A stretch of 64,000 bases of DNA from a phage. Position numbers and translations under genes: made by a program. The notes under the pieces are model-generated. The model ran no database searches, was not told the origin of the DNA, and saw only the letters and a program-made list of their open reading frames with translations. Location: NCBI GenBank assembly GCA_027263115.1, contig GCA_027263115.1_3656.1. One strand, written 5' to 3'. Positions 22,298 through 25,918 of the stretch are shown here, piece after piece (position 1 is the first letter of the stretch; each line of letters opens with the position of its first letter).

Positions 22298-24721
22298 ATG
22301 AGCATGTGGTCGTTCGACTTTGAGTCATCCGGTTTGCTGGAAGACCCAGATCTTTATTATCACTGCGGCCTGTTTAAAGAGCTGAATAAGAACCGTTTTA
22401 TGCTGTTCCTTCCTCTAAATGACCGCACACACTACTCCGAGGAGGATATAGAAAAGGCTAAGAACTTCATTCTGGCAAAGAAAACTCTTTATAAAGATTT
22501 TGAAGTTCGCATAGCAGATTTTTCAGAGTTGGAAGGTTGGCTTACAGGAAATTCTGACTGGTCACCAACAGCTTTGAACTGCCATAACTGCTACAGTTAT
22601 GACTTTATGCTGATGGAAAGATTATCTGGTATTCATTTTGATATGTTCCGTGATCCTAAATGTATGGGGACTATCAACGATCACCAGGTTAACCTGTTTG
22701 ATACGTTGGCGATGAGCCGAATCTTGTGGCCTGATCGCCCTTTACCAAAAGGTTGTCCGGACTCTGTATTCAACCCGGTTACTAAGAAAATGCAGCCTGT
22801 TGGTCCTCACGGCCTTATGGCATGGGGCTACGCCCTTGGTAACCAGAAAGTTCAAATTGATGACTGGCGCGATCTTCCGTTATGGAAGTATGTGGATCGT
22901 GTATTTGAGGACGTTATCATCCAGGAGCTGCTCTGGAAAGAGCTGGTAGCGGAATCAAAAGGTGTATTCTACGGCAAATCTGACATGCAGAACTTTATGT
23001 ACGATCCTGCCAAAGAGAAGCCGAAAGGGTTCAAGAAGATCACCTGGAAGAACGCATTACGTCGAGGCATGTTGCAGCACTTCCTGATGGAGCTGCAGGC
23101 CCGTCAGGGTGTATACTTCGACATAGATGGAGCTATTGCTTTACGTGACCGTTGCGATGCGTGGATGAAAGAAATCGCTGATCGTGTTGAACCACAACTG
23201 CCTTTAAAAGAGCTGTCAATGTCTCAGCGGCCCAAGTTCCCTGAAAAGCCGTTTAACCAAGATGGGACAATCTCTAATAATGGTTGGAAATGGTTAAAAG
23301 ATAAGCTTGGCTATCCTGTGGACATGAGTGCTTTAGAGTTCAAAGCCCCACCTAAGCGAGCATTTACCTCTACAGGAGATGTCAGTAAGATGGGGATAAA
23401 ATGGTGTGAAGAGATGGGCTGCAAAGACCACGATAAGATGGCTGATTTCTTGAGAGGCTATATTAAGGGCACCTCCACACCACAACCTTTACCTAAAGAG
23501 CTAATGGATCAGGCAATAAGTGATCTACAGCAGAAGCGAATGCCGGACTGCAAGATACCTATGAAAATCAGCAATCAGGACGACATTAAGCGATACCTGA
23601 TCAGTGCTGGTTGGCTTCCGACAATGTGGAGAACTAAGGATGTAACTAAAGACAGCAAGAAGAAAGCTTTACCTGATGCAGATGTTGATGCACGAGTATA
23701 TGCATATATGGACGAGCTTTTGGAGTCAGAGTATTGTGACCTAATTATCAACTTCTGGAACAAAACTGATGCTAAGTTCCAGACAACCGTGCACAAGTTC
23801 CGAAGCTTTCCTAACTCCGAAAGGATTAAAAAGGAAGTATTCGGGAAAATACGTAGAAAAGCTAGGGCACTTATTACTTCTCCGCAACTGAAAGATACGT
23901 TTGGACACCTGTGTCCGAATCTTGAAAAATTGAACGGAGAGATGGCTAAAGATATCGTCTTATGGTTATCATTGCGAAACCGCAGATCGGTACTTGATCC
24001 AATCAAGGAGGATAAGGTTGACACTGGTCTTCTTAATCACCCACGTTTGAAGATTGACCATAAGCTTCCTGCTAAAAGCTCTGGATTAACAAACACTTCC
24101 AGACAGAAACACAGTATTTGTGCAAACATGCCTAAACCCTCTCCTAAAGTGGTTATGGGTAAAGAGATGCGTAGCTTGTGGGGTGTTCCTCCAGGATACT
24201 TTGAGATCGGTATCGACGGGTCCAACTTAGAGCAGCTTATCGGGGCTTGGGGTGCCTTTGAGTTCGACAACGGCCTGTATTACGATGTTGTAAGTAACGG
24301 AGACGCACACCAAAACAATGCTGAGGCATATACAAAAGTAGCAGGCAGAGAGGTGTCCCGTAACGACGGTAAACCTATCACGTATGGGGTTATGTACGGG
24401 GCACAAAAAGATAAAGTTGCAGATATGCTGGACATCTCTCCAGAGTTGGGACAAAGGGTAATCGATGCGCTTTGGGATGCCAACCCTGGTCTTAAGGGCC
24501 GTAAAGAGGATCTGGAGAAATTCTGGGAAGCAACGGGTAAGAAGTTTATCTACTCTTTTGATGGTCATGCCATCTGGACCCGATCTAAACACTCTTTACT
24601 TAATGCATACCAACAGAATGGTGGTGCATCGCTGTGTGACTTGGTTGGGATACTTATGCACCACCAAATGGTGAAGCGTGGGTGGTACGATGAAGGTGTT
24701 CGTCGTATTATTTATTACCAT
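22298..24721 (+). CDS. family A DNA polymerase, exon 1 (3-5 exonuclease and polymerase motifs A and B)
   Basis: T7-like exo motif DFESSGLL...HCG, HGLMAWGYALG, motif B RNDGKPITYGVMYG; exon end placed at 24721 after His codon. Confidence 0.8.
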
Positions 24722-25564
24722 AAATAACATTGTGGCTTCATAGAGTGATCTATGTCGAATAACCTCTTTAATTGACGGGAAAGCTAAGTTGACTTTTACA
24801 CCTGAGTATGGTAAAAGCTCAATATGCTAATCCGCAGCGAAGACTAAAGGGGTGTAGTTAAAATGGCTAGAACAGCTGATTATCACGGGTATACCGTGTT
24901 TGATGATGGAACAATACCTTTATCGAAACGTGATCATACAACAATGTTTTGTTTTGATAATGGTAGAGGTTACCTTTGCGTAACCATGCTAATCGAGGGG
25001 AAGCAGTGCACAAAAGGTGTCCACCACCTGGTTGCTGAATGCTTTGTATCAAACCCAGATCCTGAAAGGCTCACATGGGTGAACCATAAGGATGGGAATA
25101 AGTACAACAATGCATACTGGAACCTGGAATGGACCACCCCTGGTGGAAATATCAAGCACGCCTATGATAATGACCTCAGAGTAAGGCCAGTTGGTGAGTA
25201 TAATGCCAACGCTGTGCTGACAGAAGATGAGGTAATAGAGATTTGCGAACTGTTGCAGAGTGGTCTACGACAATGCGAGATTAGGGATCTTGGATATCCT
25301 TATGAGACCGTCAGGGCTATAAAGCAAAGAAGACAGTGGAAACATATCTCTAAAAACTACACCTGGTAGTAACGTTCAGAGACTATCGAAAGCATAGCTC
25401 CAACACAGGTTGGTGTGAAGAAGCGAGTAGAGTAGGCCAGCAAGTGCGGTCGAAATGGGAGGTGCCTTGTTACCAAGGCAGTGAGGTAGTCCGATCCATA
25501 CAGGAAACTGTATGGCTATGCACGTAATGGTGCGGGGTAGCTTAACGACCTACCTGAACAGATG
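24722..25564 (+). mobile_element. group I self-splicing intron with embedded homing endonuclease ORF
   Basis: P element aattgacgggaaag (24770-24783), Q aatccgcagc (24839-24848), R gttcagagacta (25374-25385), S tagtcc (25487-25492); 5-prime exon ends in U, intron ends in G; 843 nt, multiple of 3. Confidence 0.75.
24863..25369 (+). CDS. HNH homing endonuclease (intron-encoded)
   Basis: HHLVAECF and VNHKDGNKYNNAYWNLEW match the HNH_3 family; own RBS. Confidence 0.85.
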   Translation: MARTADYHGYTVFDDGTIPLSKRDHTTMFCFDNGRGYLCVTMLIEGKQCTKGVHHLVAECFVSNPDPERLTWVNHKDGNKYNNAYWNLEWTTPGGNIKHAYDNDLRVRPVGEYNANAVLTEDEVIEICELLQSGLRQCEIRDLGYPYETVRAIKQRRQWKHISKNYTW

Positions 25565-25918
25565 GATGAGTACCAACTTCAGGTCCCTGACACGCCTAAG
25601 TATAAGACTGTGTACACCTTCGACACAATTGAAGAACTGGAAGCATTTAAGGCAGAGCAGGAAGCCAAACTTCATGTGTTCGACGGTCATAAGTACAAAA
25701 AGGCACGCAAGGATGAGGACGGAAACGAAGTGGTTGACAGAGATGGAAACACGGTGTACGATCCTATCCTGAACGATGACGGAAAGCTTGAACTTATCTG
25801 GAGCCCTGTGGGTGAAATGGTGGTGCATTGCTTCTGGCAAGCTTCTAAAATGATGGGCGTCCCGTTCCAGATCACAGGTGAATACCTGTGTGGTCGTAAT
25901 TGGGGGGATTGTCACTAA
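25565..25918 (+). CDS. family A DNA polymerase, exon 2 (motif C Asp-Glu and C-terminus)
   Basis: begins DEYQLQV giving spliced ...YYHDEYQLQV (motif C); ends GRNWGDCH like T7 GPNWAICH and Pol I GENWDQAH as recalled. Confidence 0.7.
   Translation, partial: DEYQLQVPDTPKYKTVYTFDTIEELEAFKAEQEAKLHVFDGHKYKKARKDEDGNEVVDRDGNTVYDPILNDDGKLELIWSPVGEMVVHCFWQASKMMGVPFQITGEYLCGRNWGDCH

Follow-up and report, generated by a model that had tools for sequence, protein, structure and literature searches.

In this phage, the gene for a family A DNA polymerase is very probably interrupted at His808|Asp809 by a mobile group I intron with an HNH endonuclease gene of its own, a reading to which we assign a probability of about 0.93. 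The intron occupies positions 24722 to 25564 of the window, by which is meant the whole 64,000-nucleotide stretch of phage DNA that was analyzed, and its removal restores an uninterrupted host gene with a junction identical to that of the intron-less phage Murica. The anatomy, the exact junction, the covarying structure, and the homologies are shown directly; catalysis, homing, nicking, and translational damping are steps that we infer. Over the polymerase region (22298-25918), the window shares 99.4% identity with Escherichia phage ECML-10, its closest match, and 92 to 98% identity with dozens of Vequintavirus (rV5-like) coliphages. As judged from sequence, then, the source of the window is an rV5-like coliphage of the genus Vequintavirus. 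Upstream of the polymerase lies a 692-aa open reading frame (ORF) of the primase-helicase type, a type named from sister-phage records.

The interrupted polymerase gene and its junction

The polymerase gene and the element within it are laid out as follows.

22298..24721, + strand: exon 1 of the family A DNA polymerase; 808 codons, ending ...RRIIYYH; U24721 is the 5' splice-site U
24722..25564, + strand: group I intron; 843 nt, starting AAAUAA and ending at omega-G 25564; IA2-like with P7.1 and P7.2
25565..25918, + strand: exon 2 of the DNA polymerase; DEYQLQV...GRNWGDCH plus stop, starting at the catalytic Asp-Glu of motif C

A preliminary description of this DNA had the polymerase frame stop at 24727, right after ...IIYYHK, and restart in the same frame at 25562. 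The list of open reading frames agrees: the ORF at 22298-24727 ends ...RRIIYYHK followed by TAA, and the ORF at 25562-25918 (MDEYQLQV...GRNWGDCH) lies in the polymerase frame. In the unspliced reading frame, the UAA at 24725-24727 falls two codons inside the intron. Every homologue examined has such an early in-frame stop, which in TH18 comes nine codons in. Exon 1 is 100% identical to exon 1 in sister phages, exon 2 is matched in sister phages by tblastn, and the two exons are continuous in Murica.

Where exactly does the intron begin and end? The earlier proposal was splicing after U24721 and after G25564, with 843 nt removed to give ...IIYYH|DEYQLQV, and this is precisely the arrangement in Murica, whose intron-less allele reads ...TAT TAC CAT|GAT GAG TAC..., the same as the predicted ligation. 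The Murica polymerase is a single coding sequence of 926 codons including the stop, and 923 of the 926 positions match the predicted ligated product. A 500-nt query representing the spliced junction (24472-24721 joined to 25565-25814) gives one uninterrupted match, at 95 to 97% identity, in many Vequintavirus genomes, among them those of the intron-less phages Murica, JohannBauhin, JES2013, and nimi. None of the shifted boundary pairs gives the intron-less sequence CCATGATGAG. The intron is placed at 24722-25564 because only these boundaries yield it, and the predicted spliced cDNA at 24721|25565 reads ...TATTACCAT|GATGAGTAC....

Could the 3' splice site fall instead after G25561, giving ...YYH-M-DEYQ? 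This G follows an A, and the resulting 840-nt excision would stay in frame. The intron-less alleles, however, read CAT GAT GAG, with no Met codon, and 8 of 10 homologues have no G at the equivalent position (UAU, UGG, UAG, UUU, or CUU precedes the terminal G). Moreover, the exon-positioning helix P10 (GAUG/CAUU) fits 25564 only. We regard use of G25561 as extremely unlikely.

With the predicted boundaries, the polymerase aligns to T7 gp5 residues 488-658, ending ...HDEIQV (E = 3.4e-11). The alignment crosses the junction (yyHDEyql versus wvHDEiqv), so that the HDE corresponds to T7 gp5 H653-D654-E655, as the preliminary description had claimed in saying that splicing recreates this motif. The family A criterion is an HDE in motif C that is contiguous with motifs A and B, and this is the arrangement found in the spliced product. 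The predicted intron is thus a phase 0 insertion that separates the codon for the motif C His (His808) from that for the catalytic Asp (Asp809). Exon 1 by itself stays below threshold with Pfam DNA_pol_A (27.9 bits; cut-off, 34.3). The C terminus GRNWGDCH had been likened to those of T7 and Pol I; the terminal pattern ...W..(C/S/T/I/V)H is indeed common to all homologues, but exon 2 alone has no significant match among PDB sequences. The C-terminal His is conserved in this polymerase family, and ends of the form ...W...H fit that pattern.

The ribozyme core and its covarying helices

The elements of the predicted ribozyme, apart from the insert in P6a, are listed here in order of position.

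24718..24735, + strand: P1; CCAU plus AA (24718-24723) with the internal guide UUGUGG (24730-24735); from the Rfam alignment
24739..24754, + strand: P2 hairpin, CAUAGA-GUGA-UCUAUG; 6 of 6 pairs doubly compensated, 100% of cells pair
24762..24839, + strand: 5' half of the core; from Rfam alignments and pair counts
24762-24766, + strand: P3, 5' strand; from the Rfam alignment
24773-24779 with 24831-24836, + strand: P4 (P and Q elements of the preliminary description); from the Rfam alignment
24782-24828, + strand: P5 with P5a/b extension; from the Rfam alignment
24837-24839, + strand: P6, 5' strand; from the Rfam alignment
25373..25554, + strand: 3' half of the core; from Rfam alignments and per-helix counts with compensatory changes
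25373-75, + strand: P6, 3' strand
25379-85, + strand: P7, 5' strand (R)
25400-13, + strand: P7.1 hairpin
25435-51, + strand: GUA linker and P7.2
25459-63, + strand: P3, 3' strand
25464-79, + strand: P8
25487-92, + strand: P7, 3' strand (S)
25496-515, + strand: P9
25520-33, + strand: P9.1
25536-54, + strand: P9.2

The four conserved core elements had been located in the preliminary description, and three of the positions are exact: P at 24770-24783, R at 25374-25385, and S at 25487-25492. The Q element, aatccgcagc, is present as well, though at 24829-24838 rather than 24839-24848, an offset of 10. Otherwise the preliminary description holds, both in what it observed and in how it read the element.

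A covariance-model scan had been suggested as a check. The window does produce a match to RF00028, at 24712-25514 and over the full model (1-253), with an E value of 6.9e-5 in the 1.1-kb region and of 0.004 over the whole 64-kb window, in which it is the sole RNA-family match. Its score of 28 bits, however, is under the Rfam gathering score of 50, and a search of the whole window against Rfam at the gathering score returned nothing. The score is low because the 528-nt P6a insert is penalized and because the model misplaces the 5' strand of P7; the gathering score itself is a threshold for automatic annotation and not a structural requirement. The other ORF-containing homologues are likewise under it, at 28 to 47 bits. 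The ORF-less forms score 72.5 (JLBYU08), 75.6 (SYGMH1), 64.7 (rV5), 91.2 (TH18), and 77.3 bits (Vibrio phage K412), and intron-less Murica has no RF00028 match. The intron occupies the same place in JLBYU08 and SYGMH1, where its length is 329 and 328 nt, while the ORF-less variant of rV5, which also passes the gathering score, is 276 nt long. In alignment A2, from which P6a was omitted in every sequence, the window ribozyme differs from that of JLBYU08 by 1 nt. The sole structural difference between the window and the ORF-less form is that 528 nt with the ORF replace a 14-nt P6a hairpin, CAUCCGAGAGGAUG. We consider the identity of the predicted ribozyme settled by these natural ORF-less copies that pass the gathering score. 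The window holds no further group I intron and no tRNA.

To what extent is the fold itself conserved? Ten introns, all located at ...YH|DE, were compared: those of the window, JLBYU08, SYGMH1, rV5, HeinrichReichert, TH18, Av-05, PBES02, SSE121, and Vibrio phage K412. Covariation was scored in alignment A2 on a hand-drawn structure, with P7 as a pseudoknot, for P1, P2, P3, P4, P5/5a/5b, P6, P7, the P7.1 hairpin, P7.2, P8, P9, P9.1, and P9.2. The claim that P1 to P9 can be folded with the elements named above fared well: standard pairs fill 94.4% of 738 cells, compared with 35 to 38% in controls in which the 3' partner was slid by 1 to 3 columns. Both-sided changes occur in 30 of 79 pairs, and none of 500 shuffles equalled the observed figures. 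Some unpaired cells in helices 4 and 5 reflect the raw MAFFT alignment, used as generated, in which the bulge of P4 is misaligned for PBES02 and SSE121. Ten helices covary (P2, P3, P4, P5, P7, P7.2, P8, P9, P9.1, and P9.2), and together with the covariance-model matches this upholds the original assignment to the group I introns. The pairing of R with S as P7 was also confirmed, in that GACUA/UAGUC becomes GGCCA/UGGUC in rV5 and SSE121 by exchanges of U-A to C-G and G-C to A-U.

P1 includes the U24721-G24732 wobble, and all six of its pairs are invariant in the 10 homologues. The candidate P10, read from the sequence, pairs CAUU at 24728-24731 with GAUG of exon 2 at 25565-25568. It was left out of the covariation count, its columns being nearly invariant and exon 2 being constrained by coding. 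The U-G wobble, the terminal G, and the 4-bp P10 are conserved in all ten homologues. Between P7 and P3, the short helix P7.2 (GGCC with GGUC) is paired in 100% of cells, with C-G, G-C, and A-U exchanges, and the GUA directly 5' of it is invariant; the P7.1 hairpin varies in length and is absent from K412. According to PMC3428280, subgroup IA2 is recognized by P7.1 and P7.2 between P7 and P3 and by a G-U-A linker. The predicted structure has all three, which would make its architecture IA2-like.

The same evidence bears on two further readings. One holds that short motifs were matched by chance in a polymerase gene that is merely truncated or pseudogenized. The score of the window under the RF00028 gathering score would fit this, yet the match has an E value of 6.9e-5 for the region and is the only one in 64 kb, homologues score above the gathering score, the covariation statistics are as given above, and excision returns exactly the 926-codon ORF known in intron-less phages. 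This is the least credible of the alternatives and, on sequence grounds, is already refuted. The other reading is that the element is mobile but does not splice, in which case the polymerase would consist of two polypeptides (809 aa, and about 118 aa from AUG 25562) assembled post-translationally. Such an arrangement reportedly exists in Aeh1, in which the NrdA gene is split by mobE and the separately made polypeptides assemble. Here, an in-frame AUG at 25562 stands just before exon 2, with UUG or GUG in homologues, many GenBank records list the two polymerase parts as separate genes, and one HNH intron of phage CB7 was not seen to splice (PMC7344957). However, no Shine-Dalgarno-like sequence is found in ...CCUACCUGAACAG, just 5' of 25562, and the conserved NUG follows from the UG with which the intron must end. 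A full ribozyme core kept by compensatory substitutions across four genera would make no sense without splicing, and the ORF-less copies (about 276 to 329 nt) would lack a reason to persist. Two separate chains would also split the His from the catalytic Asp, and the CB7 intron that is homologous to this one does splice (PMC7344957). A polymerase in two pieces is very unlikely.

The endonuclease gene and a proposed life cycle

Two overlapping features make up the portion of the intron that is absent from the ORF-less forms.

24843..25370, + strand: P6a insert; 528 nt; aligned against JLBYU08 and SYGMH1
24863..25369, + strand: putative HNH homing endonuclease gene, I-HmuI family; 168 aa; from the ORF list and PDB and PHROG matches

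The ORF fills the P6a loop almost exactly. Two stems close the insert, pairing ACUA (24843-46) with UAGU (25367-70) and GGGUGUAGUU (24850-59) with AACUACACCU (25355-64); the cofold energy is -21.3 kcal/mol. The Shine-Dalgarno-like AAGGGG of the endonuclease ORF lies partly within this P6a stem, as does its stop codon, UAG at 25367-69. Equivalent stems of different sequence are present in Av-05, PBES02, and SSE121. The P6a stem covaries although its 3' strand is coding sequence.

What kind of protein does the ORF encode? An HNH_3 endonuclease between Q and R had been proposed. The ORF, its site in the P6a loop, and its kinship are well supported, while the Pfam match is weak: HNH_3 reaches only 17.7 bits (gathering score, 24.8; E = 0.0028), with 20 of the model's 46 positions matched. 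The sole significant PDB match of the 168-aa product is I-HmuI (PDB 1u3e; E = 3e-5), and it covers the HNH motif (vnHkDGNkyNNaywNLeWtT versus vdHkDGNkdNNlstNLrWvT in I-HmuI); the alignment retains the conserved Asn residues and the catalytic His of this beta-beta-alpha-metal motif. The match to PHROG 59, "HNH endonuclease" (phrog_59), has an E value of 1.5e-36, and tblastn finds matches in 745 phage records. The assignment of the putative enzyme to the I-HmuI/PHROG 59 type is solid, and "HNH_3" is a looser label than the evidence provides. Just ahead of the catalytic His, the window ORF has Asn (VNHKDG), as does the Av-05 homologue, whereas I-HmuI has Asp (VDHKDG). In the I-HmuI structure this Asp is said to be a metal ligand, and with Asn in its place, endonuclease activity of the ORF product is not guaranteed.

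A plausible sequence of events can be proposed. In the pre-mRNA, the guide sequence at 24728-24735 would bind the end of exon 1 to form P1 with its U24721-G wobble, and an external guanosine would attack after U24721. P10 (CAUU/GAUG) would then position exon 2 for ligation after omega-G25564. The product would be a 925-residue polymerase with the HDE active site intact, whereas unspliced RNA would give a truncated protein without the catalytic Asp. In a mixed infection, the HNH enzyme would be expected to behave like I-HmuI, I-BasI, and I-PfoP3I and nick intron-less alleles near the insertion site; repair by recombination would then transfer a copy of the intron to the nicked allele, completing homing. 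Within the intron, the 5' side of the P6a stem would take in the stretch ahead of the endonuclease start codon and most of its Shine-Dalgarno sequence, and the 3' side would take in the final codons and stop of the ORF. Because the stem joins the upstream region of the ORF to its end in this way, ribozyme folding should limit translation of the endonuclease. PMC3428280 makes a similar suggestion of restrained endonuclease translation for the introns of PhiI, W31, and Pf-WMP3. The ORF-containing form is present in the essential polymerase gene of about 30 independently isolated, propagating phages.

Four states are found at this one site: empty (Murica), the ORF-less 276-nt form of rV5, the ORF-less form of about 329 nt seen in JLBYU08, and the ORF-containing form. 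Intron-less, ORF-less, and ORF-containing alleles coexist in phages that are 92 to 99% identical over the polymerase region. It is tempting, if tentative, to view the rV5-like phages as displaying every proposed stage of the mobile-intron life cycle at a single exact site. Should the P6a stem couple endonuclease translation to ribozyme folding, these phages might offer a natural system in which to study the invasion of introns by endonuclease genes and the restraint of their expression.

Comparison with known phage introns

The element is real but ordinary: it has already been annotated in sister phages and belongs with polymerase introns that are well described in phages. HeinrichReichert (MZ501073, BASEL collection) has the same element at about 95% identity, and its record joins the polymerase coding sequence from two parts and nests a "putative homing endonuclease" within it. 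The BASEL authors set intron boundaries by comparative genomics (PMC8594841). The rV5 genome paper described introns in the terminase gene only and listed a 775-aa polymerase (PMC3606486), and many GenBank records, including those of ECML-10 and the type phage rV5, show a truncated polymerase gene accompanied by "hypothetical proteins." A search of the literature turned up neither a published structure nor a splicing assay for the Vequintavirus element, nor any characterization of its endonuclease. Why, then, does recognition of the intron matter? It gives the correct 925-residue enzyme and avoids gene miscounts in pangenome and taxonomy work. The element adds a further case of homing introns at the most conserved, critical codons of essential phage genes, with no new principle.

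The H|DE site is also occupied by related introns in myophages of Vibrio and Aeromonas and, reportedly, in T7-like podophages. Two candidates were set aside. Salmonella phage SI8 was considered as a T7-like carrier of the same intron, but its HNH gene is free-standing and the phage is P22-like. In contig ECO26.1 3-1, the intron is at a different polymerase site, motif C is intact, and the likeness is limited to P9.1/P9.2.

An experimental precedent is a polymerase intron of Pectobacterium phage CB7, a Certrevirus in the same subfamily (Vequintavirinae) as the window phage, for which splicing in vivo was reported from RT-PCR, with confirmation from the sequenced cDNA products (PMC7344957). It lies between CB7_51 and CB7_49, at an identical ...IIYYH|DEYQL site, and has the same 5' end, AAGUAACAUUGUGGCUU, as the window intron. 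Its P4-P6 region is divergent, and its HNH ORF is different and shorter (137 aa by ORF scan), being annotated as similar to the HNH of Vibrio phage JA-1. The other CB7 polymerase intron, at ...ITYG|IMYGA, has no counterpart in the window.

The introns of the I-HmuI type (SPO1) resemble that of the window in being IA2, in residing in a phage family A polymerase gene, and in encoding a nicking HNH enzyme of the same family. I-HmuI has 174 aa and the window ORF 168 aa, with low protein identity. The I-HmuI-type introns belong to phages of Gram-positive hosts, unlike the window, and are inserted at Pol I site 674, in the fingers, rather than at site 881, in motif C (site numbers from PMC3428280). 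PHROG 59 is the family that has been reported for polymerase introns of the Bastillevirinae (PMC11878797).

The introns of the T7-like phages PhiI and W31 (AY769989 and AY769990) match that of the window in design and in the residue targeted, a comparison that covers what PMC3428280 summarizes about them. These are IA2 introns with an HNH ORF in P6a, inserted at E. coli Pol I site 881, which is the His of HDE. They share with the window intron a family A phage polymerase as the host gene and the 881 site, the window junction aligning at T7 H653|D654. According to the same source, they also share the IA2 architecture with P7.1 and P7.2, the HNH ORF in P6a, and a ribosome-binding-site context thought to be limiting. 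The phages themselves differ, that of the window being a large Vequintavirus myovirus and PhiI and W31 being T7-like podoviruses.

Other insertions in the polymerase gene

The motif C position, between the His and Asp codons of ...YH|DE..., is not the only place at which the family A DNA polymerase gene can be interrupted. A second group I intron site lies in the motif B region, between ...ITYG and IMYGA, and is filled in the phages TH18, Av-05, and CB7, and probably in SSE121, with scores of 37 to 47.5 bits against RF00028, the Rfam group I intron model (gathering score, 50 bits). Neither the window nor other Vequintavirus genomes are interrupted at this site.

Introns at ...ITYG|IMYGA (coordinates within each phage locus)
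TH18: L008, ~130-860
Av-05: L009, ~137-867
CB7: L006, 4171-4883
SSE121 (probable): L013, upstream of 483

The polymerase of Escherichia phage Mangalyan (OR449013) contains an in-frame insertion of 324 aa (L003, 2514-3485) after ...VVSNGDAH, at ~24311 in window numbering, which results in a coding sequence of 1132 aa. What might this insertion be? Its start has a weak match, under the cut-off, to the Hint domain PF13403 (E 7e-5), and it is therefore probably an intein. The polymerase of VB-EcoM-WM, having the same extra length, probably carries an insertion of this type, which is absent from the window.

Relatives of the intron in other phages and genes

Related introns also occupy the ...YH|DE... 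site in the Vibrio phage K412 and the Aeromonas phage TS9. The host genes are quite divergent family A polymerases, and tblastn with the window polymerase as the query gave zero matches to either locus at E 1e-3.

Introns at ...YH|DE... in distant myophages
K412: L012, 1494-1748, ORF-less
TS9: L011, ~958-1698, contains an HNH ORF

Other phage genomes contain, at other places, stretches 84% identical to the intron's P4-P6 segment (query 79-155). Among the sites are the terminase large-subunit gene of a Vequintavirus (DrSchubert) and, in Felix-O1-like Salmonella phages (Meda), the gene for DNA polymerase I. These are probably related introns in other genes; none of them is located in the 64-kb window.

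Database records and the type phage rV5

About 15 "Campylobacter phage" records with Campylobacter jejuni as the host (MG065635, MG065644, and MG065690 among them) are 86 to 99% identical to rV5-like coliphages over the polymerase region, which suggests mislabelled or contaminant genomes.

The type phage itself, rV5 (V5; DQ832317), has a 276-nt, ORF-less variant of the window intron at the identical site.

ORF-less intron variant
rV5: L004, 1750-2025, RF00028 64.7 bits

In its GenBank entry, the annotation across this variant consists of a truncated polymerase and ORFs 225-227, and the rV5 genome paper leaves the polymerase intron unmentioned (PMC3606486). Compared with the window intron, the rV5 form differs in P5, P7.1, and P8.
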